From: an uncultured Pseudomonadota bacterium | GTDB taxonomy: Bacteria; Pseudomonadota; Gammaproteobacteria; Steroidobacterales; Woeseiaceae | NCBI GenBank assembly: GCA_942491885.1 | Contig: CALOCQ010000010.1 | Location: 13,907 to 77,906, forward strand | Direction: 5' to 3' | DNA length: 64,000 nt | Shown: positions 37,919 to 53,297 of the stretch, one piece after another | Layout: each line of letters opens with the position of its first letter | How positions within the stretch are numbered: position 1 is the stretch's first letter | Translations under genes and position numbers: made by a program | Notes under the pieces: generated by a model | Databases searched by the model: none | What the model was told of the DNA's origin: nothing | What the model saw: the letters and a program-made list of their open reading frames with translations, nothing else

Positions 37919-38725
37919 CTACAAGCCGGACAGCGCGATGCCGACCAGCAGCGCAAGTGCTGATGCGACAAGGCCCGCGAAAAGGACCCGGAGACCTCCG
38001 GTTATGATGCGTGTCTCGGCGATGCGTGCCTTGAGGCAGCCAATGACGAAAAACACCAGTGCTGCAATAATGGCGCTTTGCATGTATGTCGCGTTAGTGA
38101 CGCGCTCGGCGATGGCGAAAGGCAGCAGGGGTAATGCGCCGAAAATCACGAACGCGAAGAACGTCGCTATCGCTGCAGCGAGGGGCGCCCGCGGTGCATC
38201 GGCCACGCGGTGTTCCTCCCTGAGCATGGTGTCCACCCAGACCTTGCGGTCGCTGCTGATCACCGCTACAACCTGCTCCAGTGCGTCTCCGCTCAGTCCT
38301 TTCGCGGCATAAATCTGGCGCAGCTCTTCGCGCTCGCCGTCCGGCACGCGGGCGATATGATCGTGTTCCTCACGGCGCAACCGGTCGATGCGCTCGTGTT
38401 CTGTCTGGGCATTCTGGAAGTTGCTGACCGCCATGCTGAATCCATCGGCGATCAGATTGGCGAGCCCCATGATCAGCACGACGGCTGATGACAGGCCGGC
38501 GCCATAGGCGGCTGATGCGATAGCGAACGTCGTGACACAGCCATCGATGCCGCCCAGCACCGCATCGCCGGTGTAGTCGGGACTTACGCCATCTCGCAGG
38601 CGCCGTGCGATCGACTCGGGAGCATGTTGTTCATCGAGTAGCGTGCCTTGTCTGTCTTCGCTCGTGTTTGTCACCGGCTGGTTCCTCGTGGATTGCGACC
38701 AACGCTGAGTGTAGCGATGGCGCAT
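37919..38725 (-). CDS. VIT1/CCC1-family Fe/Mn transporter
   Basis: GGIDGCVTTFAIASAA...LANLIADGFSMAVSNF and a cytoplasmic metal-binding E-rich helix (TEHERIDRLRREEHDHI). The start is uncertain. Confidence 0.8.
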   Translation of the reverse strand: MRHRYTQRWSQSTRNQPVTNTSEDRQGTLLDEQHAPESIARRLRDGVSPDYTGDAVLGGIDGCVTTFAIASAAYGAGLSSAVVLIMGLANLIADGFSMAVSNFQNAQTEHERIDRLRREEHDHIARVPDGEREELRQIYAAKGLSGDALEQVVAVISSDRKVWVDTMLREEHRVADAPRAPLAAAIATFFAFVIFGALPLLPFAIAERVTNATYMQSAIIAALVFFVIGCLKARIAETRIITGGLRVLFAGLVASALALLVGIALSGL

Positions 38726-38764
38726 CCCGAGTGCTGTAGCGGATTGCCGCAGGCGAGCGGGTGG

Positions 38765-40408
38765 TCAGAAACCACGCTTGGCCTCGACCAGGAATTGCAG
38801 GTTATCGACGCGCGGGTCGCGCTCCAGCGGGAATGCAATATCGATGTGAATGACGCGGTTGCTGTTGCCGCGCGTGCTGCCCAGTCGAAGGCCGAAGCCG
38901 GCGTTTGACAGCAGCCGATCGTCGCGCAGCCCGGTGGCGTCTGCGCCCCAGGTGCGACCCGCGTCTATGAATGCGGCGCCGCCGACTCGAAACAACCTGA
39001 ACGGGTACCAGTCAGTGTAGAAGCGTTGCTCGATCGTCAGCAGTGCCCGGCTTTCACCATTGCCGAATGCACGCGGATAGCCGCGCAGCCCGCTGTCGCC
39101 GCCCAGTTCGACGAGATCATCGAGATCGAGTTTGTAACCGGCGGTGCCTGACAATCGCGCATAGAACACCCGCTTCTTCGATTGGCGTCGGTAGTAGGTC
39201 GCATCGACGCTGAGCTTTGCGTTCCTCAGATCATCTGATTCGATGCGCCCATTGGCCGCGGCGCCTAATGTCAGCAGTTGGTCGCTGGGCTGGCCGTAAC
39301 CGCGCTGCACGTTCGCATCAAAAAGACTGCCGTTACGATCGGCGCCCAACGATTCGGACAAATAGCCTAACGTGAGCCCGTAACGCGTGCCCAGATAGAA
39401 ATCCTCGGTGCGCACGATCTGATTCAGGTTCGAGGCAACCGCGAACCGATTCTCGATCCGTTCATAGCGCAGGTACGGGTAGCGCAGGTCACGGTCCGGC
39501 GGCACGGCGAGCAGGTCAGCCGTGTCATCCGGAACATCAAAGCGGTTGTCGGAAACAACTACGCCGGCCGTCCAGCGCGTTGTCCAGTTGTCGACCAGAC
39601 CGTTCGACCAGCCAAACCACGCGCTTGCACCGCGCTCGTCGTGGCGGAATCGTCCAACCTCATCGCCCAGCGAGAACAGCGGGTCCTCGCGGTCATCGGT
39701 AAATACATCAAAACCACCGGACCAGGTAGTGTCAAGCGAGTAGAACGGGCGCGCAAGACGAAAACGCGCGCCCTCACCATCATCACTATCCCGATATCTG
39801 ACATCGAGGCTGACCCAGCTGCGACCAATATTGCGATCCGAAAAGGCGAACTGTGTTGATCGACGATCCTCGTCCTTTCTTCTTGAGAACGAAATGGCGC
39901 TGCCGGTGCCGAGCAGATTATCCTCCTCGATGCCGAACTGGTAGCGTGTTTCGCCGCCGCTTCGCGACAACGAGAGCTCTGGCAGCAGTGTCCAGTTGTC
40001 ACGTACGCTGACAACGATATCGGCGACGCTATTCTGGTAGCGCACGACGCGAATCGCCGCATCATAGAAGAAACTGTTTCGCCGCAGCAGCCGGGCTGAT
40101 TCCTCGATCAGGTTTTCGTTCAGCGGCTCACCGCTCCTGAACAGCAGCTGGGATTTTACGACGCTATCGCGCGTGTTGATGTGCAGGCGGTTAGCGAGCC
40201 GGAAGATCGATTTGTTTTCCTTGCTGGATGTTGTGTCGAAGACGTCATTGATCTGCAACGTCACCTCGCCGATGATCGCGCCGGCGGCCTCTAGCTCGGC
40301 CAGTGTCGGGATGGGAGGGGAGGCGGCGCGCGCATCATTAAGCCCACCGAACAAAGCCAGCGCCAGCGAAAAAACTGCAATTAACAAGTGAGCCCTGTGG
40401 CCTGACAT
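38765..40408 (-). CDS. Omp85/BamA-family outer-membrane protein with one POTRA-like domain
   Basis: The ATG at 40408 gives signal peptide MSGHRAHLLIAVFSLALALFGGLNDARA. A POTRA-like segment (IGEVTLQINDVF...VVSVRDNWTL). The C-terminal barrel ends ...LVEAKRGF. Confidence 0.78.
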   Translation of the reverse strand: MSGHRAHLLIAVFSLALALFGGLNDARAASPPIPTLAELEAAGAIIGEVTLQINDVFDTTSSKENKSIFRLANRLHINTRDSVVKSQLLFRSGEPLNENLIEESARLLRRNSFFYDAAIRVVRYQNSVADIVVSVRDNWTLLPELSLSRSGGETRYQFGIEEDNLLGTGSAISFSRRKDEDRRSTQFAFSDRNIGRSWVSLDVRYRDSDDGEGARFRLARPFYSLDTTWSGGFDVFTDDREDPLFSLGDEVGRFRHDERGASAWFGWSNGLVDNWTTRWTAGVVVSDNRFDVPDDTADLLAVPPDRDLRYPYLRYERIENRFAVASNLNQIVRTEDFYLGTRYGLTLGYLSESLGADRNGSLFDANVQRGYGQPSDQLLTLGAAANGRIESDDLRNAKLSVDATYYRRQSKKRVFYARLSGTAGYKLDLDDLVELGGDSGLRGYPRAFGNGESRALLTIEQRFYTDWYPFRLFRVGGAAFIDAGRTWGADATGLRDDRLLSNAGFGLRLGSTRGNSNRVIHIDIAFPLERDPRVDNLQFLVEAKRGF

Positions 40409-40526
40409 AGTCAGATTCCCGACATCGACTTCTTTGCATGAGCGTACGCTTCGTGAGAGGCTTTTGCCAACGCAAAAGCCAACGCCACGTCGCGCGATGG
40501 ATATGCCATTTCCGGAGCGGATGTTT

Positions 40527-42113
40527 ATGAGCCGATGGATTGTCTTTATCACTCTGATCGGTCTGGCGGCCTGTCATGACGCGACGGTGCCCGCAGACCA
40601 TAACGCAGTCGCCGAAACGCAACCGCAACGACCAACATTCAGCCTGACCACGAGCGAGGCGTATGACATAGCAGCGATTGGCAGTTACGCGAATGTGCAT
40701 CAGGCGATTTACGATCACATCGATGCCAGCCAGCAAGGCCACCTTGCCGCGATCCAGCGCTGGCTGCGCCAACCGTCAATCTCGGCGCAGAACGTGGGCG
40801 TGACAGAAATGGCGGAAATGCTGCGTAACGATCTCGAGGCGATCGGTTTTAGCGAAACGACGCTGGTGCCTACCAAGGGCCACCCGGGCGTTTGGGGCTA
40901 CTATGACGCCGGTGCTGAAACGACGCTCGTGCTGTATATGATGTACGACGTCCAGCCCGTGAACCCGGACGACTGGCAGAGTCCGCCGTTTGACGCCGAG
41001 CTCATCGACCACGAGCTTGGCAAGGTGTTGATGGCGCGCGGCGCGACGAATCAGAAAGGCCCGCAGCGCGCATTCCTCAATGCACTCGAATCGATTATTG
41101 CGGTCAACGGTACACTGCCCGTCAATATCATGGTGGCGGCAGAGGGAGAAGAGGAACTCGGCTCGCCAAACTACCCGCAGATTGTCGATGCCTATGAGGC
41201 GCGTCTAAAGACTGCCGATGCGGTGCTATTTCCATTCAATTCCCAATCGCCCGATGGCGACGTGTCTTTCTTGCTGGGCGTCAAAGGCATCATTTACTTC
41301 GAACTCATCGCCAATGGTGGCGAGTGGGGCGGGCCGGCCGTCGCGGAAATTCACGGCTCCTACAAGGCGATCGTTGACTCGCCGGTATGGCAGCTTGTGC
41401 AGGCGCTGGCGTCGTTGACAACGCCCGATGGCAACACGATCCGTGTGCCGGGGTACTACGACGGTGTCCGTCCGCCGAGCGACGAAGAGTCGCGGCTGAT
41501 CAATGCGAGTGTCGAGGATCGCAATGATCGACAAATGCAGGAATCATTCGGTGTCAGTCGATGGATTGACGGCAAGACCGGTACCGACGCGGTCGTCGAG
41601 TTGCTGTTCCAACCGACATTGAATATCGATGGTATTTACGGCGGCTACACCGGCGAGGGCACGAAGACGATCCTGCCGCACCGCGCGGTCGCAAAAGTGG
41701 ATTCGCGGCTGCCACCGGGCCTCGACCCGGACGTGTCACTGGCGAAGATCCGGGCGCATCTCGACGATGAGGGTTTTTCGGACGTAGTGATGCGTAAAAT
41801 GTCGGCCTACCCCGCCGCGCAAACTTCGATCGAGGCGCCCGCGGTTAAGGCCGCCGTTTCGGTGTTTTCGAAATACGCCGGCAACGTTCGCATCCAGCCG
41901 CGCATCGCCGGCAGCGCGCCGTTTTATCAATTCACCGATCGCCTGGGCCTGCCTATGGTGCCGGCGGGACTGGGTTTCGGTACCGGCGCACATGCGCCCA
42001 ACGAAATCATGTTGATCTATCCGGCTGACGGCGTCGCTGCGGCGGGACTGGCGGAGATCGAAAAAGGCTATGTCGATTTCGTGTTTGCGCTGGCCGGTGA
42101 CCAGGCGCGCTGA
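40527..42113 (+). CDS. M20-family metallopeptidase (dipeptidase-like), lipoprotein
   Basis: Lipobox ITLIGLAAC. M20 motifs (LVLYMMYDVQPV, ARGATNQKGP, AAEGEEELGS). Start at 40521 or 40527. Confidence 0.85.
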   Translation: MSRWIVFITLIGLAACHDATVPADHNAVAETQPQRPTFSLTTSEAYDIAAIGSYANVHQAIYDHIDASQQGHLAAIQRWLRQPSISAQNVGVTEMAEMLRNDLEAIGFSETTLVPTKGHPGVWGYYDAGAETTLVLYMMYDVQPVNPDDWQSPPFDAELIDHELGKVLMARGATNQKGPQRAFLNALESIIAVNGTLPVNIMVAAEGEEELGSPNYPQIVDAYEARLKTADAVLFPFNSQSPDGDVSFLLGVKGIIYFELIANGGEWGGPAVAEIHGSYKAIVDSPVWQLVQALASLTTPDGNTIRVPGYYDGVRPPSDEESRLINASVEDRNDRQMQESFGVSRWIDGKTGTDAVVELLFQPTLNIDGIYGGYTGEGTKTILPHRAVAKVDSRLPPGLDPDVSLAKIRAHLDDEGFSDVVMRKMSAYPAAQTSIEAPAVKAAVSVFSKYAGNVRIQPRIAGSAPFYQFTDRLGLPMVPAGLGFGTGAHAPNEIMLIYPADGVAAAGLAEIEKGYVDFVFALAGDQAR

Positions 42114-42121
42114 GGCGTGGG

Positions 42122-42724
42122 CTAGTTAGGGTTGCCTGTGGCAGCGCGTAGTTCACCGAGCACCGCGAGTACGTCTGCGCGACTGTGATTTTCGCGCCAA
42201 CGGACGTAGGGCCGGCGGGAATCGCCTGCCGCGTGCAGCGTTACGTCATTGGCCGCATAGATCATGCGAATCTGATCGGGCGTTACGGCGAAGTAGCCGC
42301 TAAGCGCTCCTGCGACGGGCCGACGGAAAGGCGACTCACTCAGGCCGACGCCCCGCGCATGCCATGCGCTTGCGCTAAGTTGCATGGGCTCGCCGTCAAC
42401 GAGTACGACCAGATCTGCGAATGCAGCGCTTTCGTCTTGTCCTTTCGCATCAGCCATCGTGCTCCAGATGCCCAGCCACAAGTAATATTGATGGTTGCCC
42501 ATACGATTGACCATCAGCGGTGCAACCTGCAGGTAATCGCGCGCATAGGCGGCACGGCCGGGTTCACTGCGAAAAAATACGTCCGGCGAGCTGATTGTCA
42601 TGTAGCTGGCACCGGTGAATTCATCCAGATTCTGATTCGCGCCCGTGCGGACCGACGAGCAACCAATGAGTGCAAGCGTGCCGATAAGGCAGGTCAGATA
42701 TCTCAGGCAGGCAGGTCGAATCAC
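42122..42724 (-). CDS. lipoprotein of unknown function; last gene of the cytochrome operon
   Basis: Lipobox LALIGC. 200 aa with no motif I recognise. It starts 10 nt after the stop of the barrel gene. Confidence 0.65.
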   Translation of the reverse strand: MIRPACLRYLTCLIGTLALIGCSSVRTGANQNLDEFTGASYMTISSPDVFFRSEPGRAAYARDYLQVAPLMVNRMGNHQYYLWLGIWSTMADAKGQDESAAFADLVVLVDGEPMQLSASAWHARGVGLSESPFRRPVAGALSGYFAVTPDQIRMIYAANDVTLHAAGDSRRPYVRWRENHSRADVLAVLGELRAATGNPN

Positions 42725-42734
42725 GGCGAAAATC

Positions 42735-44834
42735 CTAGTAGATGAGCTGATAGCCGAGCATGACGTAGTTCGAGTCGCGGTCGATGTCTCCGCTGGCCGT
42801 CGTGCGGCTGGCTATCTGCCGGCCTGCCTCGAATTCGACGCGTACATTGCGACCGCTGCGCCACAATGCGCGCAGGCCTGGCGTGAATATCCACTCATCG
42901 CTCTGGTCCGATTTGATTTGTCGATAGTCGACACGTAAGCGGGGACTCAGGAAAAAACTGCGCCGCAGTGGCCAACGGTTATTCAGGTTCAGCGTATAGA
43001 CGCGTGTCGTTGACGAGTCCGCATAACGCACCCCACTTACATAGATGTCGCCTTGCTTGAACAGGCTGCTCGCGACGAGGCTGGTGGAAAAATACTGATA
43101 GCTGTTTTCTGCCTGGCCCGGCACACCGCCGGAATCCGGCGTGGCTGCGATGTCGGTATTGGTTGCGTTCATATTCAATTGCAAACGCGGCGTTAACGGG
43201 CTGGACACGCCTACCGTCATTGTCGTTGCTTCCGGCGCGCGATCCAGTGCGAGTTGGCGTAGCTCTTCCTCAGTAAACAGCACCGCAAGCTCGTCGAACG
43301 AATCGACCTGTTGCCCCATCATTGCATTGCCAATACTCAGGAACTGGCTGCGTCTTCGGTCGACAATACCGCTTATCGTCAGCCCGGAATTTGATCGCCA
43401 TGCGCCTTGCACGAACAGCCCACCCATCTCCTGGAATGCAGTGTCATAGTCCATCTGACCCCAGAGGCTAAGTGACTCGGAAAAATATCTTAGCTCGGTG
43501 CCGACGACCTGCCGGTCAACCATGCCGTCGATCGTTTGCTGTAGTGCGAATACACCGACGTTAACGCGTTCGTCGAGCAGGTCCCGATTGGCACTGATGC
43601 CGTAAAATACCCGCGAGTTGTCTGCGCCGCGGGTAGCCGAATACACGGGGCGACCAGCCACCGCATCGAGTTCCCAGCGATCGCCTAATCGATAGTCGAC
43701 GTTGATGCCATCGAAGCGGCCGAGTACGCCGCCCGAGTTGCGCGACTGTCGACCAATCCGGGTGCCCAGGCCGGTGGCGCTGTCGCGCAGGTCGGCGTAG
43801 GCATATGACAGGCGAAGGTCGTTGGCGCTGGTTTGCGATTGGTCGAGCAGATCGTGGCGGTAGCCTGCGGTGATGCGGCTCGAAAAATCAAAGCGCTCAC
43901 CGCGGCGTCTGGCGTCGACGCTGATGTCGGAGAACACCGCCGATTGACTGACGATTGCGTCGTTGTCAGCGAATTGGTTCTCGTCGCGCCGATAGCGCTG
44001 CGCAAGGAAACTGGCGATTTGCCAGTCGCCACCGCTAGCCACCGTACCGCCACTGTTTGTCGTTGCCGTTGCCGGTGCCGCCCCGTTGGTGTGAGCCGCG
44101 ATTAACGCTGCGAGTCGTTGTTCCACGCGCGCCGCCGCGTCATGTGCGGGGTAGTTGGCGAGGAATCGTTCGTATTCGGCCTTGGCATGCGCGACCTGGT
44201 TGTTTTTCTGACGTGCCAGTCCAAGATATTCCTGAGCCTGCGGGTGATGCGTTGTCTCCGGTTGCTGCAGCACCTTGGTGAAAATCTGGATCGCGACCGA
44301 CAGCTGGCCGGCCATCATTGCGTTGCGGCCATCGGCCATTAATGAGGCCAGCGCGTCGTCGTCCAGTGTTCTGGTACTGGCCTGCTTGATGGCGGGCGGC
44401 GCAGCGGGTTGGACAACAGCGGGCAGGGTATCGGACGACGACGCTTTCGCCTGTGCGATCCAGGCTCCGGGGTAGTCCTGGCGGACCGCCTCGAGGGCAT
44501 CATTCGCCTCGGCGAGCGATCCGAAGACGCCGAGCTGTACCCGATACCAGGTGCGCCCGTCGAGCCGGGTTGTCTCGATCATCACCCGTTTGCCATCGAC
44601 AGCAGGACTGATGAGAAGGTCGGCCTGCGTCGGTATGCGTTGCATCGAGGCGAGATTGATGACGTAGCGACGCGCGCCCGGTGTTGATCGCTTGACCAGC
44701 CGGGTTACGCGCGGTGGCCCATCGGGTTGGTGTTCCTGCACCAGTGGCGCACCGTCGGCCAAAGCGAGCTGTATCGGCAGCACACAGCACATCAGAATGA
44801 CCGTGCTGGTATGTGGTCGTCGTGGCGCTCGCAT
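42735..44834 (-). CDS. outer-membrane protein: SPOR-like + TPR + C-terminal beta-barrel
   Basis: The ATG at 44834 lies 4 nt after the upstream stop and gives signal peptide ...VILMCCVLPIQLALA. A SPOR-like segment (YVINLASMQ...WYRVQLGVFGSLAEANDALEAVRQDYPGAWI). A TPR segment (...QEYLGLARQKNNQVAHAKAEYERFLANYP). About 420 aa of alternating-strand sequence ends GYQLIY. Confidence 0.75.
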   Translation of the reverse strand: MRAPRRPHTSTVILMCCVLPIQLALADGAPLVQEHQPDGPPRVTRLVKRSTPGARRYVINLASMQRIPTQADLLISPAVDGKRVMIETTRLDGRTWYRVQLGVFGSLAEANDALEAVRQDYPGAWIAQAKASSSDTLPAVVQPAAPPAIKQASTRTLDDDALASLMADGRNAMMAGQLSVAIQIFTKVLQQPETTHHPQAQEYLGLARQKNNQVAHAKAEYERFLANYPAHDAAARVEQRLAALIAAHTNGAAPATATTNSGGTVASGGDWQIASFLAQRYRRDENQFADNDAIVSQSAVFSDISVDARRRGERFDFSSRITAGYRHDLLDQSQTSANDLRLSYAYADLRDSATGLGTRIGRQSRNSGGVLGRFDGINVDYRLGDRWELDAVAGRPVYSATRGADNSRVFYGISANRDLLDERVNVGVFALQQTIDGMVDRQVVGTELRYFSESLSLWGQMDYDTAFQEMGGLFVQGAWRSNSGLTISGIVDRRRSQFLSIGNAMMGQQVDSFDELAVLFTEEELRQLALDRAPEATTMTVGVSSPLTPRLQLNMNATNTDIAATPDSGGVPGQAENSYQYFSTSLVASSLFKQGDIYVSGVRYADSSTTRVYTLNLNNRWPLRRSFFLSPRLRVDYRQIKSDQSDEWIFTPGLRALWRSGRNVRVEFEAGRQIASRTTASGDIDRDSNYVMLGYQLIY

Positions 44835-44838
44835 CGTG

Positions 44839-46185
44839 CTAGAACTCCCCACTTGAAATGCGGTGCTCGGGTCCCGGGCGATTTTCCTTGATCGTGGTCT
44901 CCGTGCTGTCGTTATAGATGTGGCACGAGCCTGAGCAATCCTGCAGTTCGCCAAGCGTGTAGCGTACATCCGGATTTTCATATTTTTTGTGCGGGCCAGG
45001 CTCAAAATCGTTTGCGTGGCAGCCGGCACAGTTGGGCTGGTAGGCGGGTGCACGCCAATTGATGATGGCATTGTTGGCGCTGTGGCAATCGGTGCAGGCA
45101 AGATTGCCGCGATGATCCAGCGGCTCATATCCGAGCGCGAGGTGGCGATAGGTATGAGGTACCCACGCGGTCGTCAGGTGGCAGTCGTTGCACTCCTGCA
45201 TCGTGATGAAATGGTCCGGCGTCTTCGGTGTCGCCGAGCTGCCATCGTGGCAGGACGTACATGACCCCAGGACCTGCGTGTGATCGACACGCGTTGCCGG
45301 CGTCCATGTCACCGGGCTATGGCAGTCCTCGCACACATCGGTCGTCAGGATGTGCATCGGGCTCTTGCCGGTGGCATCGCGACCGTTATGGCAGCTCACG
45401 CAGTTGCCGGTGACGTTGGTGTGATCGAAGGTCGCCGGTAGCCAGGCAACCGTTGTATGACAATCGTCGCAGTTGTCGCCGCTGGCGATGTGGGTCGGAT
45501 GTTTGCCGGTGGCGTCGCTGCCATTGTGGCAGGAGACGCAACTGCCGAGCACCTGCATGTGATCCATTGCGATGGCCGGTTCCCAGAATGCGTTGCTATG
45601 GCAGTCCTCGCACACATCGGTCGTCAGGATGTGCATCGGGCTCTTGCCGGTGGCATCGCGACCGTTATGGCAGCTCACGCAGTTGCCGGTGACGTTGGTG
45701 TGATCGAAGCGTGCGGGCTCCCATGCCGTTGAGGAATGGCAGTCGTCGCATTGATCGCTTGATTGAATATGTGTCGGCGTCTTGCCCGTTGCGTTGATGC
45801 CGTTATGACATGAGCCGCAACTGCCCATCACCGCGGTATGGTCCATGTATGGAATCGCGTTCCAGCTGGATGTCGTATGGCAGTCGGCGCACTGCTGTGT
45901 TGTCGCTACATGATTCGGTGGTTTCATGGACGCGACGATGCGTGCGTTGGGTCCGTGGCATGACGCACAGTCCGGGCTGGTCGCGGCGAACGTACCGCCT
46001 GTGTGGCAGCCCTGGCAGGTAACCGTGGAATGCGCGCCGTCAAGCGGGAAGCCGGTGCTGAAGTGATCGAAGCGCTCCTGGGCGAGCGAGTTTGTGTTGA
46101 TGGCAGACAGCAGGATCAGTGCCAGCAGCGCAAGCCAGCGCGGCATGGCCTGACGGGCCTTCAGGTTTCGTGATTTGCAGATCAT
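44839..46185 (-). CDS. multihaem c-type cytochrome, 15 CxxCH + 1 CxxxCH (paired-CXXCH type repeats)
   Basis: I counted 15 CxxCH motifs plus CSGSCH. The ATG at 46185 overlaps the upstream TGA (ATGA). Signal peptide ...WLALLALILLSAINTNSLAQE. An alternative ATG is at 46146. Confidence 0.88.
   Translation of the reverse strand: MICKSRNLKARQAMPRWLALLALILLSAINTNSLAQERFDHFSTGFPLDGAHSTVTCQGCHTGGTFAATSPDCASCHGPNARIVASMKPPNHVATTQQCADCHTTSSWNAIPYMDHTAVMGSCGSCHNGINATGKTPTHIQSSDQCDDCHSSTAWEPARFDHTNVTGNCVSCHNGRDATGKSPMHILTTDVCEDCHSNAFWEPAIAMDHMQVLGSCVSCHNGSDATGKHPTHIASGDNCDDCHTTVAWLPATFDHTNVTGNCVSCHNGRDATGKSPMHILTTDVCEDCHSPVTWTPATRVDHTQVLGSCTSCHDGSSATPKTPDHFITMQECNDCHLTTAWVPHTYRHLALGYEPLDHRGNLACTDCHSANNAIINWRAPAYQPNCAGCHANDFEPGPHKKYENPDVRYTLGELQDCSGSCHIYNDSTETTIKENRPGPEHRISSGEF
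45316..45430. repeat. 115-bp exact direct repeat, copy A (inside the cytochrome gene)
   Basis: Base-for-base identical to 45595-45709. The offset is 279 bp, which is 93 codons. Confidence 0.95.
45595..45709. repeat. 115-bp exact direct repeat, copy B (inside the cytochrome gene)
   Basis: Base-for-base identical to 45316-45430. It encodes FDHTNVTGNCVSCHNGRDATGKSPMHILTTDVCEDCHS. Confidence 0.95.
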
Positions 46186-47747
46186 CGTATCGCCCTGACG
46201 TCGCGGAAGGAATCGGCAGAATGGCAGCGGGCGCAATCTTCGCCGAACTCCCCATCGTGTACGTCGTCGGCGCGATGACAGCTTCCGCAGGATTGCGAGC
46301 CGCCTTTCATCGCGGTGAGAGACTGGCGGTGACAACTGTTGCAGCTCACCTCGGCGTGCGCGCCGGAAAGTGCGAAATCGCTTTGACGGTTATGATCAAA
46401 GCGCCAATTTTCCCAGTCGACCGGCGTGTGGCAGGTCGCGCAGTCCGGCGTAAAGCGATTGTCGTGCGGATCTTCGTCGGCATGACAATCGACGCAGGCG
46501 CTTGGTGCATCAAGAAAAGCCTGAGTTTCGTGACAGGACTGGCATTCAACTTCGGCATGGTTGCCCAGTAACGGAAATGCCGTGAAGTCATGATCGAACA
46601 GGACCTGATCGAGCCAGCCAATCTCGTTATGGCAGGTCTGGCAGTCCTCGCCTTCCTGACCCTTGTGAACGTCGTCTGCCGCGTGGCAGCTGTAACAATC
46701 CTCGGCCAGGGCAACTTCGAATACCGGTTCGACGTGACAGGACTCACACGTTGCGTCGCGGTGCGCGCCGGCGAGTATGAATCCGGTGTCAGTGGCATGA
46801 TCGAAGGTTGTCGACTCCCATTCCTCATCGCTGTGACAGGTTTCGCAGTTGGGCCCGAAGTGGCGGTCGTGCGCGTCGTCCTGCTCGTGACAGGAAACGC
46901 AGGTTCGCTCGAGTCGGTCAGAAAAAGGATCGTCGCTGTGGCAGCTGGTGCAGTTGAGATCGGCATGGCCACCCGTCAATCCGAACAGCGTGTCGCGATT
47001 GTGATCGAAGGTGGTGTCCGTCCAATCAACTGTGTTGTGGCAACGGTCGCACTGGTCACCACTGCGCCCGTCATGCGCATCATCTTCCTTGTGGCAACCC
47101 ACGCAGGTGGTCGGCGCATTCTGGAATGTCGAGTCGGCGTGACAATCGAGACAGCCTGTACTCGCGTGGGCGCCTAGCAACGGGTAGTCGGTCAGGTCGT
47201 GGTCGAACTCTGCATCAAGCCAGGACTCGACGGTGTGGCAATCCTGGCAGCTTTCGCCCAGAAACGTTTCATGTGCATCGTCCGCTTGATGGCAATCGAT
47301 ACACTGTCCCGGCGCCTCACGGTACAGGGTATTTTCGACATGGCAGCTTTCGCACTGCACATCGGCGTGTTTGCCAAGCAATTCGAAATCGGTGAAACGG
47401 TGATCGAATGTAGCCTCATCAAATTTCACTATCGTTGCGTCGCGGCCTTCGTGGTCAGTATGACAGCTGGCGCATGTCATGCTGCTCGCAGACGGATCCC
47501 TGCCGTGAAAGCCTGTCGAGCTGTCAAGGTCTGCACCAACGTCTTCATGGCACACGACACACAGTTTTTGCTGGGCGCCACGATCAAATTTCTGGTGGCA
47601 GGAGCTGCACTCCGACTCGACCTCCGCATGGCCTTCGATGACTTTACCGGGCATAACCAGCGACTCCAGCGTGCCGGCTCGTGCGTCGCTTGTTGTCATC
47701 AGTAAAACGGTCATTACAAGTCCAAAAGTGATCCTGATCGATGTCAT
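46182..47747 (-). CDS. multihaem c-type cytochrome, 21 CxxCH (seven c7-like trihaem modules)
   Basis: I counted 21 CxxCH motifs. Six tandem units of about 66-69 aa each begin FDH...L.G.H....C..CH and contain three haem motifs, preceded by an N-terminal trihaem unit. Signal peptide MTSIRITFGLVMTVLLMTTSDARA. Confidence 0.9.
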   Translation of the reverse strand: MTSIRITFGLVMTVLLMTTSDARAGTLESLVMPGKVIEGHAEVESECSSCHQKFDRGAQQKLCVVCHEDVGADLDSSTGFHGRDPSASSMTCASCHTDHEGRDATIVKFDEATFDHRFTDFELLGKHADVQCESCHVENTLYREAPGQCIDCHQADDAHETFLGESCQDCHTVESWLDAEFDHDLTDYPLLGAHASTGCLDCHADSTFQNAPTTCVGCHKEDDAHDGRSGDQCDRCHNTVDWTDTTFDHNRDTLFGLTGGHADLNCTSCHSDDPFSDRLERTCVSCHEQDDAHDRHFGPNCETCHSDEEWESTTFDHATDTGFILAGAHRDATCESCHVEPVFEVALAEDCYSCHAADDVHKGQEGEDCQTCHNEIGWLDQVLFDHDFTAFPLLGNHAEVECQSCHETQAFLDAPSACVDCHADEDPHDNRFTPDCATCHTPVDWENWRFDHNRQSDFALSGAHAEVSCNSCHRQSLTAMKGGSQSCGSCHRADDVHDGEFGEDCARCHSADSFRDVRAIR

Positions 47748-47766
47748 GAAGCGTGCTTATGAATGC

Positions 47767-48651
47767 CTAATACATGTGTACGGCGAGTACATGAAACAGC
47801 GCCGACAAAATCATCATGAAAAAAATCGGCATATGAAAGACATGCCAGAGTGCGAACAGACGTTCGTAGAACGAGAACTGCGCAATACGCCCCATCAGTT
47901 GCGTGTAGTCACGGATGTAGCGGCGCGCAGCGCGCTTCAGGCGGTCGGCGTCTTTCGCGACTGCCGCCGATTGTTGGCCACTCGCGGCGAGCTCGCGATG
48001 GGCGAGTCGTGACAAAGACCAGCGCGTGTAGCGATGCGTCAGTGTCCAGCGCAGGCCGCGACGAAAGCCTAGTGAGCCGGACGATTTCTCAGCCTGAAGT
48101 TCTGTGGCGATTGTCTCGAGCCGACCAGCCAGTAACGGCATGAGTCGCGCCAGCCCCTGATTGCTCTCCATTGACGCGGCGAGCTCCTGCTGCAATTCGC
48201 GCAGCGAAGTCTTGCGACCATAGAGCCCCTTGTGGATGCGGGCATAAAAATGCCGCCCGATGATGCCGCTGCCAGCGACCAGCAGCATGCAGAACAGGGC
48301 CATCTGGCTGTTGAACGAGCCCAGCTGGAAGTTGCAGTGATAGAGCACCAGCAGCGGCCCGTACAGACCAAAGACCATGTGCATGTTGAACCAGTGCCTG
48401 GTCTTGCCGAGCCTATGCATGAACCGCCAGCGCTTGCGCAGCGGATAGAGCAGTAATACGAGCATCAGCGTGCCACCGGCAATACCAAGCCAATAGCCGA
48501 GCCCATGTTCGGGCGTAATCCATTCAACGTCACGGAATCGCCAGCCGATCGCGATCGATGCGATGGCAACCAGATAGCTGACCGGAATATTTTTGTACCA
48601 ACGCGGCGTGGCACGCAGCTTTCGCTGCATTGTTTCGGCTTTGGCGACCAT
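47767..48651 (-). CDS. 5-TM inner-membrane protein with two H-x13-H helices (candidate di-haem b protein)
   Basis: The helices are ...NMHMVFGLYGPLLVLYH... and ...FHMPIFFMMILSALFH... . A polar, coiled-coil-like insert of about 110 aa lies between TM4 and TM5. Confidence 0.7.
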   Translation of the reverse strand: MVAKAETMQRKLRATPRWYKNIPVSYLVAIASIAIGWRFRDVEWITPEHGLGYWLGIAGGTLMLVLLLYPLRKRWRFMHRLGKTRHWFNMHMVFGLYGPLLVLYHCNFQLGSFNSQMALFCMLLVAGSGIIGRHFYARIHKGLYGRKTSLRELQQELAASMESNQGLARLMPLLAGRLETIATELQAEKSSGSLGFRRGLRWTLTHRYTRWSLSRLAHRELAASGQQSAAVAKDADRLKRAARRYIRDYTQLMGRIAQFSFYERLFALWHVFHMPIFFMMILSALFHVLAVHMY

Positions 48652-48684
48652 TAGACGCGCTTCCTGATTACAGTTCGCATCACC

Positions 48685-49524
48685 TTAGCCTTCTGTTTCA
48701 CTATGCAGAGCAAGTTCTACATTCACGGCGACACTGCTGGTATCAACCCGATTTGAAACGATGTCCTGCATCGCGACGCTGGCATCACCTGTTTTTGATA
48801 CGCGGGCATAGATGGTGAAGCGTTTATAGCGCGAGGCCTGACCGTCGGGCAGCATCAGGTTGCTGGTATCCAGGGAGAAGCTGAGCGGCAAACTGGTCGC
48901 GGCATATTTGGCGACCGCGATGGGCATCGCCGGGCCGTCGGCTGCGCGCGCAACAACAAAGATCGTTGCATCCGGCGGTATCATCTGGCGCGCCGCATCA
49001 TCCGCTACCAGTGTGCCGACGATCCGAAACCCCAGATCCCCTTTGGTGGTTTTCGCTGACCCGAACAGTAGCTTCTGTTCCAGACTTTGATCAACTGCGC
49101 CGCGTTCCGCGGCTTCACGGTAGGCCGCCCGTGCCTGATCGGTATTGCCGAGGTGATCATAAGACTGGGCCAGCAGCAACCAGTCGCCGCCATCGCCGTC
49201 ACCCGCACTCAGGCGGGCGGCAAGGCCGTCCACCAGGTTGGAAACCGAGCCGATTTTTCCGCCTTGCGTGTCGAAGCCCGGGACGGCCGGAACGGCCTTC
49301 TCGCTGGCGCGCTGTGATATGCGGTCGTCGTTGCGGTCGCCGGAAAGCAGGGCGTCCGGTTGCCCGACGCTTGCGTACAGCGCGACAACGGCAAGCGGTA
49401 TCAACGCAGCGCCGGCAAGTGCCATCCAGCCCACGCGCTTTTCCTTGACGAAAGGACGAAGCAACAGGACAAGTGTCGCAACGATACAAACGAAAATGAT
49501 GAGAACAAAGAAATTAGCGGACAT
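48685..49524 (-). CDS. CcmI/CycH-like cytochrome c maturation chaperone
   Basis: The ATG at 49524 has a GGAG 6 nt upstream. Two N-terminal TM helices, a TPR segment (GDWLLLAQSYDHLGNTDQARAAYREAAERG), and a CcmI-type C-terminal domain (ATIFVVARAADGPAMPIAVAKY...LPLSFSLD...IYARVSKTGDA). Confidence 0.72.
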   Translation of the reverse strand: MSANFFVLIIFVCIVATLVLLLRPFVKEKRVGWMALAGAALIPLAVVALYASVGQPDALLSGDRNDDRISQRASEKAVPAVPGFDTQGGKIGSVSNLVDGLAARLSAGDGDGGDWLLLAQSYDHLGNTDQARAAYREAAERGAVDQSLEQKLLFGSAKTTKGDLGFRIVGTLVADDAARQMIPPDATIFVVARAADGPAMPIAVAKYAATSLPLSFSLDTSNLMLPDGQASRYKRFTIYARVSKTGDASVAMQDIVSNRVDTSSVAVNVELALHSETEG

Positions 49525-49553: not shown

Positions 49554-49598
49554 AGTCTCAGAGACTCGGCAACCATTGAATTGAGACGAAATGTCTCA
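49554..49598. promoter_or_regulatory. two GTCTC/GAGAC palindromes in the divergent promoter region
   Basis: AGTCTCaGAGACT (49554-49566) and TGAGACgaaatGTCTCA (49582-49598). A TTGACA at 49538-49543 lies 17 nt upstream of GAGACT. A (CA)5 run is at 49597-49606. Confidence 0.3.
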
Positions 49599-49668
49599 CA
49601 CACACATATGTTGTCAACCTGTCGTCAAACACCGACGCCAGTTGATTAAACATAAATATTGGTGGCCT

Positions 49669-50511
49669 ATGCAGTCGCACGAACATGCAACAATCTCGCG
49701 ATATCTCAGTCGCATGCTCAGGCGCTTGCTGGGGCCCGTGGCACGCATCCTTGTGCGCCACGGCATGACGCACAAGGATGTTGCGTTGATTTGCAAAGAG
49801 GCTTATGTAAAAGCGGCCGCCGATGTCGAGCAGGGTTCTGCAGCATCCGTAAACGTGTCGCATGTCGCATTATTGACGGGCATGGCGCGACGCGATGTGC
49901 GCAAAATTCTTGCGGCGAAACCTGATGATCGGACCAGTGATGTGCGCCAGAATAATGCGACACGCGTATTGTCAGGATGGCATCAGGATTCTGATTTCCT
50001 GACCTCGCGCGGGAAGCCGCGCGTGCTGCGCAAGTCCGGTGTGACCGGTAGCTTTGAGGCGCTTGTGAGGCGCTACGCGAGCGACATTCCCGCCAGCACG
50101 ATGGCAAAAGAGCTGAAGCGTGTGAAGGCAATTGCGACCAACGCCAGCGGTAATCTTGAAGTGTTGACGCGTTACTACATGCCCGCCAGAAATCGCGTGC
50201 TTGCGCCGGCGGCGATCGAGCGCGCCGGCAGTGTTCTGGAAGATGTTGGTGAGACCGTCGACTACAACTTGCGCCGTACGTCGCGGCAACCGAGCCGGTT
50301 CGAGCGGCGCGCGACGAATCCGGCTATTCCCAGGGCCGCGATCCCGGCATTTCGCCAGTTCGTTGAGCTTGAGGGCCAAAGATTTTTGGAATCCGTGGAC
50401 GCCTGGTTAAGCGACCATGAGTTAAATGATGAAACCTGCGACTCCGATTCGCGTTGCCGACTGGGCGTCGGCGCATACTGGATCGAGTCCGACCGAACAG
50501 AGGAAATCTGA
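49669..50511 (+). CDS. hypothetical protein with HTH-like segment (DUF6502-like)
   Basis: The ATG at 49669 follows GGTGG. The segment VSHVALLTGMARRDVRKIL resembles a helix-turn-helix. The gene is divergent from the cytochrome operon. Confidence 0.6.
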   Translation: MQSHEHATISRYLSRMLRRLLGPVARILVRHGMTHKDVALICKEAYVKAAADVEQGSAASVNVSHVALLTGMARRDVRKILAAKPDDRTSDVRQNNATRVLSGWHQDSDFLTSRGKPRVLRKSGVTGSFEALVRRYASDIPASTMAKELKRVKAIATNASGNLEVLTRYYMPARNRVLAPAAIERAGSVLEDVGETVDYNLRRTSRQPSRFERRATNPAIPRAAIPAFRQFVELEGQRFLESVDAWLSDHELNDETCDSDSRCRLGVGAYWIESDRTEEI

Positions 50512-50512
50512 C

Positions 50513-51934
50513 ATGAAAATGATATCGATTGGTAGTCCCCGCGTATTGCTTCTGGCACTTCCTGCTCTGGTTGCGAGCCTCAGCGGTTGCGGCGACAATT
50601 TAGTCGCCGGTATCGATGCGGGTGGACAGCCGACGGCTGCCGTAACGACGGTGGGTGCCGTTACCTCGACGGGACAGTTTTCTGTGAACGGCCGTGAGTT
50701 TGACGTGTCCGCTGCCACCATTACCGTCGATGGGCAGTCAGCGACTCCGGCAGACCTGAAGCTCGGCCAGGTAGTTGCGATTACATTCCGGGATACCGGT
50801 GCCGTCGCTTCGGCCGAGTCCGTAGATGCGGATGATCTGGTTGAAGGACGCATTGAGTCGATTGATCTAATCGCCGGCGAAATCGAATTACTCGGACAGC
50901 TCGTGCTGATCGAACCGGACACACTATTCGATGGCGAAACCCGTGCCAGTCTTAGCGAGCTTTCGATTGGTGATGTCATCGAAGTCAGTGGCTTCCTGAC
51001 GTCAGCGAACAGCATCGTTGCCACCCGCATAGAGCAGGAAGGTGACTCGGATGATTACGAGATTGTCGGTTTTGTAAGCGACCTCGATACCGCAGCCAAT
51101 CGCTTCATGATCAATGATCTCGTTGTCGACTTCGGCGCGGCGATGCTCGAAGGCTTTGGCGGCGGAATCGCGACGGGCGATCTGGTGGAAGTCGAGGGCG
51201 ACGACTACACGAATGGTGTCGCATTCGCGAGCAGCGTTTCGCGTGAGCGAGACGTGCGCGACGATGACGCGGACGAGTACGAACTGGAAGGTTTAATCAC
51301 GCGTTTCGTTTCTGCCACCGATTTTGATGTTCAGGGAATTCCGGTCACGACAGATGCCGCTACAGACTTTGAGAACGGCAGTGCGGCCGATCTCGCGCTC
51401 GACGTGCGCGTTGAGGTAGAGGGTCGGCCGAATGCCGGCGGCGTTATCGTCGCGGACGAGATTGAGTTCCGGGCGATGACATCCGCGAAGGTAGAGGCGA
51501 CCGTCGATCTTGTGGACGCGAGCCAGGGGGCGCTGAATGTATTCACTATTGAGATTACGCAAACGTCGTCGACGATATTCAAGGATGAAGGCCCATTGGA
51601 GCTCGAGCGGTTTTCACTCGATGACATCAGTGACGGTGACTTTGTTGAGGTCATCGGGCAGGAAAGCGCCAGCGGTTTGATCGCGACGCTGATTAAGCGC
51701 AAGAGTCCCGAGGACAGTCTGAAGCTCAAAGGTGTCGCCAGTGCAATCAGTGACCCGCAATTCACTGTGCTCGGCGTTACCGTGATGACGAACGCGCAGA
51801 CGAGCTTCGAGGGTGATAATGATCAGTCGATTGATGCGGCGACGTTCTTCGCCAATGCAAACGGTCGCCGGGTCGAGGTGCAGGGTGATCGCGTCGGTGA
51901 CATATTGATGGCCGACGAAGTCGAGCTCGACTGA
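50513..51934 (+). CDS. lipoprotein with six DUF5666-like repeats
   Basis: The ATG at 50513 lies 1 nt after the upstream TGA, with AGGAA upstream. Lipobox VASLSGC. Repeated ...G..V.V.G... units (VIEVSGF, LVEVEGD, RVEVEGR, FVEVIGQ, RVEVQGD). Confidence 0.75.
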   Translation: MKMISIGSPRVLLLALPALVASLSGCGDNLVAGIDAGGQPTAAVTTVGAVTSTGQFSVNGREFDVSAATITVDGQSATPADLKLGQVVAITFRDTGAVASAESVDADDLVEGRIESIDLIAGEIELLGQLVLIEPDTLFDGETRASLSELSIGDVIEVSGFLTSANSIVATRIEQEGDSDDYEIVGFVSDLDTAANRFMINDLVVDFGAAMLEGFGGGIATGDLVEVEGDDYTNGVAFASSVSRERDVRDDDADEYELEGLITRFVSATDFDVQGIPVTTDAATDFENGSAADLALDVRVEVEGRPNAGGVIVADEIEFRAMTSAKVEATVDLVDASQGALNVFTIEITQTSSTIFKDEGPLELERFSLDDISDGDFVEVIGQESASGLIATLIKRKSPEDSLKLKGVASAISDPQFTVLGVTVMTNAQTSFEGDNDQSIDAATFFANANGRRVEVQGDRVGDILMADEVELD

Positions 51935-51980: not shown

Positions 51981-53297
51981 ATGACGATCGCCGCTTATGC
52001 AATGTACGGCGTGCCCGCGGTGCTGCTGTTTACGCTCTATCTGCGTGCGCATAGCCGACGTTCGCGAGCAGACTGGGATGCGATGCAGGAGTCGATCGAA
52101 ACCGGCATGACCGAGCCGGCCTCGCTGCATCCCTTGATCGATCCGATCAAATGTATTGGTTGCGCGTCCTGCGTGTCAGCGTGCCCGGAGCAAGACCATC
52201 ATCCGGTCATCGGCATTATTCGCGGTAAGGCCAGGCTGGTCGGTCCGAGCAATTGCATAGGTCACGGTGCCTGTCTGGCGGCGTGCCCGGTGGATGCTAT
52301 CGAGCTCGTGTTCGGCAGTGCGCGCCGCGGTGTCGACATTCCGCGCGTCGACGAGAACTTCCAGACCAACGTGCCGGGTATCTTCATCGCCGGCGAGCTT
52401 GGCGGGATGGGGCTGATTCGCAACGCCATAGAGCAGGGCAGACAAGCGCTGGAAGCGGTGCGCGGGCTGGACGGGCTAAAGCGATCGGATCGGCTCGATG
52501 TCATCGTTGTCGGCGCGGGACCGGCGGGTTTCTCCGCGTCCCTGGCCGCCATGGCGGGCAAACTGCGCTTTGTTACGCTTGAGCAGGATACCCTCGGCGG
52601 CACGGTCGCGCATTTCCCGCGCGGTAAACTTGTTATGACGCAGCCTGCCGAGTTGCCGATCGTTGGCAAAGTGAAGTTCACCGAGACCACCAAGGAGGCG
52701 CTGCTGTCGTTCTGGCAAAAGGTGGAGACGGACACCGGCTTGTCGATCAACTACAACGAACGTGTCACCGACATTTCCCCCTTGGCCGACGGCCAGGGCT
52801 TCACTGTTACGACGACAAAAACCTCCTATGACACGCGAGCGGTGCTATTGACCATCGGTCGCCGCGGCACGCCGCGACAGCTCGGTGTGCCCGGCGAAGA
52901 CCAGTCGAAAGTCGTATACCGGCTGATCGACCCGGAGCAATACCGCGGCCAAAATGTTCTGGTCGTCGGCGGTGGCGACAGTGCACTGGAAGCGGCGCAC
53001 AGTATTGCTGAGGAGCCCGGCACAACGGTCACGCTGTCCTATCGCTCGGCCGCTTTCTCACGCGCCAAGGCAAAGAATCGCGATAAGGTCGAGCAGCTGG
53101 CGAGCGCAGGACGCCTGCAGGTCTTGCTGGGCTCAACGGTTGAGCTCATCGAGGCAGATAGCGTCGTGATTGCGGTTGGTGAACAATCGCAGCGCATTGC
53201 CAACGATGCGGTGATTGTCTGTGCCGGCGGTATCCTGCCAACAGGGTTTCTGAAGGAAATCGGCATCAACGTCGAGACAAAATTCGGTACCCGTTGA
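51981..53297 (+). CDS. membrane-anchored 2x[4Fe-4S] ferredoxin domain fused to FAD/NAD(P)-dependent oxidoreductase
   Basis: N-terminal TM. CIGCASCVSACP and CIGHGACLAACP clusters. GxGxxG motifs DVIVVGAGPAG and VLVVGGGDSALE. Confidence 0.85.
   Translation: MTIAAYAMYGVPAVLLFTLYLRAHSRRSRADWDAMQESIETGMTEPASLHPLIDPIKCIGCASCVSACPEQDHHPVIGIIRGKARLVGPSNCIGHGACLAACPVDAIELVFGSARRGVDIPRVDENFQTNVPGIFIAGELGGMGLIRNAIEQGRQALEAVRGLDGLKRSDRLDVIVVGAGPAGFSASLAAMAGKLRFVTLEQDTLGGTVAHFPRGKLVMTQPAELPIVGKVKFTETTKEALLSFWQKVETDTGLSINYNERVTDISPLADGQGFTVTTTKTSYDTRAVLLTIGRRGTPRQLGVPGEDQSKVVYRLIDPEQYRGQNVLVVGGGDSALEAAHSIAEEPGTTVTLSYRSAAFSRAKAKNRDKVEQLASAGRLQVLLGSTVELIEADSVVIAVGEQSQRIANDAVIVCAGGILPTGFLKEIGINVETKFGTR

Follow-up and report, generated by a model that had tools for sequence, protein, structure and literature searches.

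A PCC3-type multihaem cytochrome cluster from a Woeseiaceae genome, its conserved flavoprotein partner gene and a possible NAD(P)H-to-outside electron route

The 64,000-nucleotide stretch of DNA analysed here (the window) comprises positions 13,907 to 77,906 of the forward strand of contig CALOCQ010000010.1 (assembly GCA_942491885.1), from an uncultured gammaproteobacterium of the family Woeseiaceae, and holds, between positions 42122 and 49524, six open reading frames (g1 to g6) that all lie on the minus strand. A preliminary description had proposed these genes as an undescribed trans-envelope electron conduit, with a direction of flow that could not be read from the sequence. On re-reading, the same six same-strand genes were recovered, with junctions of 33 nt, 19 nt, a 4-nt ATGA overlap, 4 nt and 10 nt. 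The first, g1 (48685..49524, 279 residues), encodes a CcmI/CycH-like protein and is followed by g2 (47767..48651, 294 residues), encoding an inner-membrane protein (IMP), and by the genes of two multihaem cytochromes (MHCs) with Sec signals, the periplasmic g3 (46182..47747, 521 residues, 21 CxxCH) and g4 (44839..46185, 448 residues, 15 CxxCH and one C-terminal Cx3CH). The last two genes are g5 (42735..44834, 699 residues), for a protein of the outer membrane that has a signal peptide, a SPOR domain, TPR-like helices and a predicted 22-strand beta-barrel, and g6 (42122..42724, 200 residues), for a predicted lipoprotein with a fold without known match. The recurrence of this arrangement in 80 species-level genomes and 80 metagenome contigs argues that it is not due to chance.

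On gene order, motifs and homology, the cluster is a member of PCC3 and not an undescribed system. PCC3, which since 2017 has figured as a putative system for iron oxidation or for extracellular electron transfer, consists of a porin, one extracellular and one periplasmic MHC, and an IMP (He et al. 2017, Front Microbiol 8:1584, PMC5566968), and its known carriers include S. lithotrophicus ES-1 (Slit_0867-0870 and Slit_1446-1449), Gallionellaceae, Leptothrix, Methylotenera and tubeworm symbionts. The published median haem numbers are 21 for the periplasmic and 34 for the extracellular MHC, at 22-39 residues per haem; the IMP has about 300 residues and five transmembrane (TM) helices, with SGXXG on TM4 and WX3HX13H on TM3 and TM5, and 22 TM regions were predicted for the L. 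cholodnii porin (PMC5566968). The window genes g2-g3-g4-g5 stand in the order of IMP, cyt-c_p, cyt-c_e and porin of Slit_1446-1449. Similarly, the IMP of the window is of the expected size (294 residues) and carries five TM helices, the SGxxG motif and two WX3HX13H motifs, the 21 haems of g3 are arranged in seven tri-haem repeats of about 67 residues each, as in the Riftia-symbiont PCC3, and the residues per haem of g3 (24.8) and g4 (28 per haem site, or 29.9 counting only the 15 CxxCH) fall within the published 22-39. The second MHC is built of repeats with a variable haem number and the barrel is large, in the window as in PCC3. The preliminary description had judged the parts not to look canonical and had cited PCC3 as something separate; neither view is supported, since order, sizes, haem numbers and IMP motifs match PCC3 (PMC5566968). 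The PCC3 definition covers four genes, whereas the window and many of its relatives add a CcmI-like gene, a lipoprotein, SPOR and TPR modules on the porin and a divergently encoded iron-sulfur (FeS) flavoprotein.

The family was surveyed in two ways. Species-representative genomes queried with two IMP peptide patterns gave 80 loci, a scan that leaves out PCC3 clusters with divergent IMPs, such as those of ES-1, and metagenomes queried with the g5 barrel gave 80 further loci, which are close relatives (45-52% identity); upstream and downstream counts use only loci with enough flanking DNA. The genome-scan hosts were Woeseiaceae, other gammaproteobacteria, Methylotenera, Aquabacterium, Steroidobacteraceae, Hyphococcus and Marinicaulis, of which Methylotenera and Aquabacterium, here found with the IMP query, are genera named by He et al., and the closest relatives of the window cluster were Woeseiaceae and 'Chromatiales' metagenome-assembled genomes (MAGs). 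The genome loci run from the IMP through an MHC of 21, 24, 27 or 18 haems and an MHC of 12-78 haems to a g5 homolog. A g3 homolog follows the IMP in 69 of 70 genome loci, and a multihaem gene lies directly upstream of the barrel in all 52 metagenome loci with enough upstream DNA; in the reciprocal direction, the barrel scan recovered IMP and flavoprotein in 16/16 metagenome loci. The expected co-conservation of all six genes was thus borne out for the core (69/70 and 52/52) and not for the CcmI-like gene and the lipoprotein, which are lineage-restricted extras to the PCC3 core. A profile of beta-proteobacterial IMPs also recovered Gallionellaceae proteins, among them that of a MAG (locus L084) with, in order, a flavoprotein, a CcmH/CycH-TPR protein, an IMP, a 24-haem MHC, a 10+1-haem MHC and a 709-residue porin, the haem numbers matching the published Gallionellaceae PCC3 values. 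All four core proteins are homologous to this cluster; g5 aligns with the L084 porin at 29% identity over 577 residues (E 2e-57), across TPR and barrel, and g2 with its IMP at 38% identity. Membership of the Mtr, Mto or Geobacter Pcc systems was rejected, as profile scores were far below the cut-offs: for MtrA/DmsE (TIGR03508) g4 scored 69.3 against a cut-off of 192.2 and g3 15.8, and for MtrC/OmcA (TIGR03507) g4 scored 26.1 against 209.3. No MtrB/PioB-type barrel family of NCBIfam was among the g5 matches, which were only of TPR/BamD type. The PCC3 assignment therefore draws on gene order, IMP motifs, haem repeats and homology to L084, together with the failure of the Mtr/Mto profiles.

The haem counts first reported for the two cytochromes (21 CxxCH in g3; 15 CxxCH plus CSGSCH, a Cx3CH motif, in g4) were borne out. 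The Pfam matches of g3 are to Cytochrome_C7 and c3, g4 is composed of di-haem repeats of about 46 residues, and the histidine counts of 43 (g3) and 35 (g4) fit bis-His ligation. Homologs of g4 carry 12 to 78 haems, which places the window protein, with 16, among the shortest; it has a Sec signal and no lipobox, and sits at the 'extracellular MHC' position of PCC3. Within g4, a tandem duplication was located at 45316..45832 (279 bp, 1.9 copies, 83% matches; Tandem Repeats Finder), the unit of which encodes 93 residues and four haems. The CxxCH counts of complete second MHCs in the gamma clade are mostly 15, 19, 23, 27, 31, 35, 39, 43, 47 and 51, usually with one extra Cx3CH (loci L002-L043; 33, 37 and 74 are among the counts off this series), and from these steps of four the wire length of the second cytochrome appears to evolve by gain and loss of repeats. 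At two loci (L051 and L075), a flavoprotein, an IMP and a 22- or 27-haem cytochrome are encoded, but the following 10 kb contain neither a second cytochrome nor a barrel; these may be split or reduced systems.

A gene that bears on the direction of flow had been overlooked in the preliminary description. It lies 2.4 kb upstream of the operon in divergent orientation (51981..53297, plus strand) and encodes a flavoprotein of 438 residues, in which an N-terminal TM helix and basic residues precede a 2x[4Fe-4S] ferredoxin domain and a thioredoxin reductase (TrxR)-like FAD/NAD(P) domain (Pfam and NCBIfam). Basic residues after the TM anchor, and the lack of a Tat motif, predict that the bulk of the protein is in the cytoplasm. 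The second ferredoxin motif, C-x2-H-x2-C-x3-CP at residues 92-102, has a histidine that is invariant in 73 sequences, which suggests a 3Cys/1His [4Fe-4S] cluster like the distal clusters of hydrogenases; in the first motif, only 74% of the sequences keep the second cysteine. The best NCBIfam match was YpdA (149.9, with a cut-off of 339.9), and the relatives in the PDB were YpdA/Bdr and TrxR-type ferredoxin-NADP reductases (7a7b, 2zbw, 3ab1). The flavoprotein may be an NAD(P)H-using enzyme of TrxR type; a CxxC disulfide was absent from its flavin domain on reading the sequence.

In 67 of the 68 loci with at least 3 kb of upstream sequence, which span Gamma-, Beta- and Alphaproteobacteria, this flavoprotein gene stands next to the IMP or CcmI-like gene in divergent orientation; the Gallionellaceae locus L084 has it as well. 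Two more distant contexts strengthen the link between IMP and flavoprotein. On plasmid pEMTOL02 of Emticicia oligotrophica (NC_018749.1, 78197-90781; Bacteroidota, L166/L168), ccsA, the IMP, the flavoprotein (an ortholog with 46% identity, E 7e-142), a 23-haem MHC and an MHC of at least 36 haems are encoded consecutively, in this order, on the same strand. On a plasmid of Methylophaga pinxianii (NZ_CP095734.1, 25047-28401; L167), a flavoprotein of ferredoxin-NADP reductase (FNR) type stands immediately before a 252-residue IMP homolog and a 7-haem cytochrome; it is non-orthologous and membrane-anchored, with FAD_binding_6, NAD_binding_1 and 2Fe-2S domains. In the Emticicia cluster, the MHC of about 1000 residues is followed by a 538-residue hypothetical protein and a GW-domain protein, and upstream, in divergent orientation, are the genes of an outer-membrane barrel and of a sigma-70 protein; the three-gene Methylophaga version adjoins ccmAB and metal-resistance genes. 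Neither a link between this flavoprotein and PCC3 nor locus tags beside the ES-1 clusters were found in the literature searched, an absence that is in itself no proof.

The IMP that would receive the electrons of the flavoprotein carries the motifs W87-x3-H91-x13-H105 (WFNMH-x13-H) and W269-x3-H273-x13-H287 (WHVFH-x13-H), and S128-G129-x2-G132 (SGIIG). The four histidines, both tryptophans and the S/G/G residues are invariant in an alignment of 31 homologs, the motifs are equally invariant in relatives from Beta- and Alphaproteobacteria, and the four histidines, S128, G129, G132 and W269 remain invariant even in the Bacteroidota and Methylophaga homologs. The five TM helices first described, with H-x13-H pairs on two of them, were found again in the sequence motifs and in the AlphaFold2 model; a basic cytoplasmic loop of about 120 residues is also predicted. 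The protein is predicted to act as a di-haem-b relay, with H91 and H273 near the cytoplasm and H105 and H287 near the periplasm. No Pfam or NCBIfam family was assigned to g2, no PDB profile matched it, and Foldseek against solved structures, NOX, STEAP and MsrQ included, gave no match with E < 1. A recognisable ferric-reductase-domain or cytochrome b fold was therefore rejected, given five TM helices and no match in Pfam (PF01794), PDB profiles or Foldseek. Some IMP homologs are 450-690 residues long and have N-terminal TPR or SPOR domains (P0467, P0401, P0376); they may be natural fusions of a g1-like module to the IMP, or merges made in gene calling.

The porin encoded by g5 was modelled with AlphaFold2 from 43 sequences, with a mean pLDDT (predicted local distance difference test score) of 80.6, and of about 90 in the barrel. 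The model has a SPOR fold (residues 57-128), five TPR-like helices (159-249) and 22 beta-strands (271-697), with a helical insert of nearly invariant residues (501-532) between strands 13 and 14, and thus agrees with the SPOR, TPR and barrel of the first reading. Pfam detected SPOR (PF05036) with 28.2 bits (cut-off 21), and TPR/YfiO matches were weak. Across the family, TPR was found on the porins of all three proteobacterial classes wherever Pfam detects anything, and SPOR on gamma and alpha porins, not on beta ones. Most close homologs have about 820 residues, including an additional N-terminal domain of about 120 residues with two conserved cysteines (alignment A2), from which the window porin differs, as does P0002 (689 residues), by lacking this domain; the DNA upstream of g5 leaves no space for it. 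Against the PDB, Foldseek returned only generic outer-membrane barrels (FimD usher, MOMP, OccK and AlgE), with TM-scores of at most 0.5.

Since TPR joined to a barrel is the architecture of BcsC, PgaA and AlgK-AlgE, and AlgE was among the Foldseek matches, it was considered whether the cluster might be no electron conduit, the TPR-barrel exporting a polymer or secreting the second cytochrome and the flavoprotein and IMP supplying thiol reductant in the manner of DsbD/CcdA. The closest named relative of the flavoprotein, YpdA, is a disulfide reductase, and the operon includes a CcmI-like gene, both in keeping with such a role. Nevertheless, the barrel has 22 strands and TM-scores of just 0.24-0.35 to AlgE, no glycosyltransferase or synthase genes are conserved nearby, and a barrel family kept without cytochromes was not seen, a multihaem gene being upstream in 52/52 of the loci found with the barrel; g5 was rejected as a polysaccharide exporter or secretin on strand number, generic Foldseek matches and this upstream gene. 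Likewise, the thiol relay was rejected for IMP and flavoprotein, as C106 and C121 of the IMP are not conserved beyond the gamma clade, in contrast to the four invariant histidines, and the flavoprotein has no CxxC. With unconserved cysteines, no CxxC and no polysaccharide genes conserved nearby, a thiol-relay or exporter role is very improbable. The proposal that the genes belong together and supply the logical parts for a haem conduit across the envelope gained from these results, the genes being co-conserved and the barrel real, and no known periplasmic reductase was found to flank the clusters.

The interpretation that we favour, with a probability of about 0.5, is that this PCC3 cluster is a quinone-independent haem conduit from NAD(P)H to the outside of the cell, with electrons flowing outward. 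According to this proposal, the cytoplasm-facing flavoprotein would oxidise NAD(P)H through its FAD and pass single electrons to the two [4Fe-4S] clusters, the distal one His-ligated, as its domains and motifs suggest. The electrons would then reach the IMP, where the four invariant histidines could hold two b-haems between TM3 and TM5, one per membrane face, and from there the 21-haem periplasmic cytochrome, the haem count of which was read directly and which, going by lengths in the literature, should be long enough to cross the periplasm. This cytochrome would make contact with the second one, of 16 haems, at or within the 22-strand barrel, which the SPOR and TPR modules may tie to peptidoglycan and to partners. 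Net flow would start at NAD(P)H in the cytoplasm and end at an acceptor outside the cell, bypassing the quinones. The preliminary description had held the direction to be unreadable from the sequence; the conserved FeS flavoprotein that is predicted to face the cytoplasm bears on this question, and the direction is most likely outward, because the transfer from typical Fe(II) couples to NAD(P)+ would be uphill in redox terms and would carry negative charge into a negative-inside cell, with no coupling module encoded. The PCC3 clusters of ES-1 were reported to be down-regulated on Fe(II) (PMC8788666), and the corresponding proteins had low percentile ranks on magnetite. Outward flow fits this down-regulation, and also the finding that most of the carriers found here are not iron oxidisers.

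Several points weigh against this outward route. Homology was measured against L084, and the ES-1 Slit clusters were likened by published order and features. One locus, L079 of Aquabacterium, lacks a flavoprotein gene in the 6 kb upstream of the IMP, and in proteobacteria the flavoprotein and IMP genes are divergent and not co-transcribed. We infer haem b binding, NAD(P)H use and the contact of IMP and flavoprotein alike, and the placing of g4 at the cell surface, by its PCC3 position, is putative. The IMP model has no match to any solved fold, including NOX, STEAP and MsrQ, so that the NOX analogy is a functional one only. A 2025 preprint terms PCC3 'functionally unverified', and many hosts are iron oxidisers, with those who defined PCC3 favouring inward flow to quinones (PMC5566968).

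This original model, in which electrons from extracellular Fe(II), minerals or a cathode enter through the outer cytochrome and reach the respiratory chain by way of the IMP, working as a cytochrome b that reduces quinone, the flavoprotein being a side branch or unrelated, is the main rival, although we hold it to be unlikely. It was proposed by He et al. (PMC5566968), and agrees with the occurrence of PCC3 in Gallionellaceae, Leptothrix and other iron oxidisers and with the rise of the IMP gene of one PCC3 copy during iron oxidation in Sideroxydans CL21; helices with two His pairs are, additionally, typical of quinone-reactive cytochromes b. The behaviour of ES-1 on Fe(II) (PMC8788666) and on magnetite speaks against it, as do the hosts, most of which are not iron oxidisers (Woeseiaceae, Methylotenera, Hyphococcus, Marinicaulis, Emticicia). 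No quinone-site motif was identified in the IMP, and inward flow would leave unexplained an NAD(P)-type FeS flavoprotein that stands beside the IMP in 67/68 loci and between the IMP and MHC genes in Emticicia.

The second rival keeps the wiring of the outward conduit and gives it a non-respiratory purpose, namely a NOX/FRE-like supply of extracellular Fe(II) for uptake, superoxide for Mn(II) oxidation or signalling, or a periplasmic electron store (capacitor), and is considered improbable. A split NAD(P)H flavoprotein and di-haem membrane protein follow the logic of NOX/FRE and MsrQ-Fre, the outward route would pump no protons, and aerobes, methylotrophs and symbionts are found among the hosts. 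The PCC3 carriers of He et al. (PMC5566968) include an Erythrobacter that oxidises Mn(II), and the capacitor idea is found in Hoover et al. On the other hand, a barrel of its own and haems numbering from 37 to about 100 would be much to invest in assimilation, genes for iron uptake are not conserved beside the cluster, and reactivity with oxygen is only assumed.

Beyond the PCC3 core, g1 was confirmed as CcmI/CycH-like. It has two hydrophobic helices at the N-terminus (read from the sequence) and a Pfam Ig_CycH domain well supported by its score (E 1.4e-20, 73.5 bits, cut-off 27); TPR matches are weak, and TPR_CcmH_CycH, recorded for homologs, is below its cut-off in g1. In 45 of 79 genome loci a homolog immediately precedes the IMP, and in L084 a 181-residue TPR_CcmH_CycH protein takes the position of g1, so the gene recurs in gamma-proteobacterial and Gallionellaceae clusters; none was detected in the Methylotenera loci of the genome scan. 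The protein is a putative dedicated apocytochrome chaperone for the cytochromes of the operon, comparable to NrfG, which is encoded together with its client NrfA. With NrfG and CcmI, g1 shares CcmI-type TPR and Ig_CycH domains and a place beside its presumed client cytochromes, but the window operon has no companion lyase genes (NrfEF or CcmFH paralogs). The ccsA gene of the Emticicia cluster supports the view that the giant cytochromes may need dedicated maturation. Elsewhere in the window (15382-16488, minus strand) another TPR protein is encoded, whose TPR_CcmH_CycH match stays below threshold. The lipoprotein g6 has the lipobox LIGC, with serine at +2, and, in line with its first description as an orphan, no family or structure match in Pfam, NCBIfam or the PDB; PDB sequence searches with g1, g3, g4 and g6 gave nothing useful. 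The g6 gene immediately follows that of the barrel in 62 of 63 metagenome loci and in 24 of 36 genome loci; these are all gamma-proteobacterial, the only group in which it was detected.

Two possible accessory genes sit between g1 and the flavoprotein gene in the window. The first, for a DUF6502 protein (49591..50511, plus strand; Pfam E 1.3e-38), opens the divergent operon, and the second encodes a DUF5666-repeat lipoprotein (50513..51934, plus strand; lipobox LSGC; Pfam E 2.3e-55, five stretches). In 12 Methylotenera-type loci a weak DUF6502 homolog stands beside the flavoprotein gene, joined in 11 of them by DUF5666, and the pair is absent beside the flavoprotein gene in Woeseiaceae loci. 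Downstream of the operon (37919-40552, minus strand, and 40434-42113, plus strand) are the genes of a VIT1-family iron transporter, an Omp85-family protein and an M20 peptidase, the last convergent with g6, and these neighbours are not conserved in relatives. Promoter and terminator scans gave results at chance level.

The PCC3 identity as such is hardly surprising; what this analysis adds is a flavoprotein partner found across the family, along with the accessory genes and the anatomy of the barrel. If the flavoprotein feeds PCC3, the direction and donor could be tested with simple vesicle assays, annotation as iron oxidases or mtrCAB would need revising, and the inner-membrane entry module would be a new one, independent of CymA, ImcH, CbcL and quinones. 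More tentatively, PCC3 would then not be an iron oxidase, the path together with the flavoprotein spanning both membranes from NAD(P)H, by way of FAD, the FeS clusters, a pair of b-haems and about 37-100 c-haems, to the exterior. Such a path would be a Gram-negative counterpart of NOX/FRE, widely spread among the Woeseiaceae of marine sediments, methylotrophs, alphaproteobacteria and even Bacteroidota. Woeseiaceae are core members of marine sediment communities, and PCC3 was common among them in the genome scan with the IMP. The IMP matched 2,437 representatives at 50% identity and more than 1,900 proteins in a collection clustered at 90% identity (a lower bound, with 8,000 candidates scored), and by these counts the PCC3 cluster is abundant. 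A 2025 metagenomics paper on Woeseiaceae (PMC12175321) reports 'mtrA, mtrB, mtrC' in sediment MAGs; some of these calls might be PCC3, because it is common in the family and its cytochromes give weak MtrA/MtrC-type profile matches.

In comparison with known systems, the cluster has in common with MtrCAB, MtoAB and PioAB the logic of a periplasm-facing MHC, an outer-membrane barrel and an outer cytochrome, but its haem numbers are far larger, and the barrel has 22 strands, compared with the 26 of MtrB (PDB 6R2Q). As stated in the preliminary description, there is no NapC/NrfH/CymA-type anchor, and no quinol dehydrogenase of CymA/NapC type was found in the cluster. The IMP of PCC4 (He et al. 2017) also has five TM helices, SGXXG and a double WX3HX13H, and subgroup II has an Fe-S protein gene upstream of the IMP. 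PCC4, however, combines three cytochromes in the periplasm with none outside the cell, and its IMP family is reported to be non-homologous to that of PCC3, whereas the window has the PCC3 pair of a 21-haem and a variable-haem MHC. There is also a functional likeness to NOX/FRE and the two-component MsrQ-Fre, in which a cytoplasmic NAD(P)H flavoprotein feeds a membrane protein with two haems and His pairs 13 residues apart on two helices, so that electrons cross the membrane, and the HX13H parallel to NOX/FRE was already drawn by He et al. (PMC5566968). The IMP nevertheless differs from NOX/FRE in having five TM helices instead of six, with neither PF01794 nor a Foldseek match, and the flavoprotein in being of TrxR type with 2x[4Fe-4S] instead of FNR type, the exception being the Methylophaga variant.

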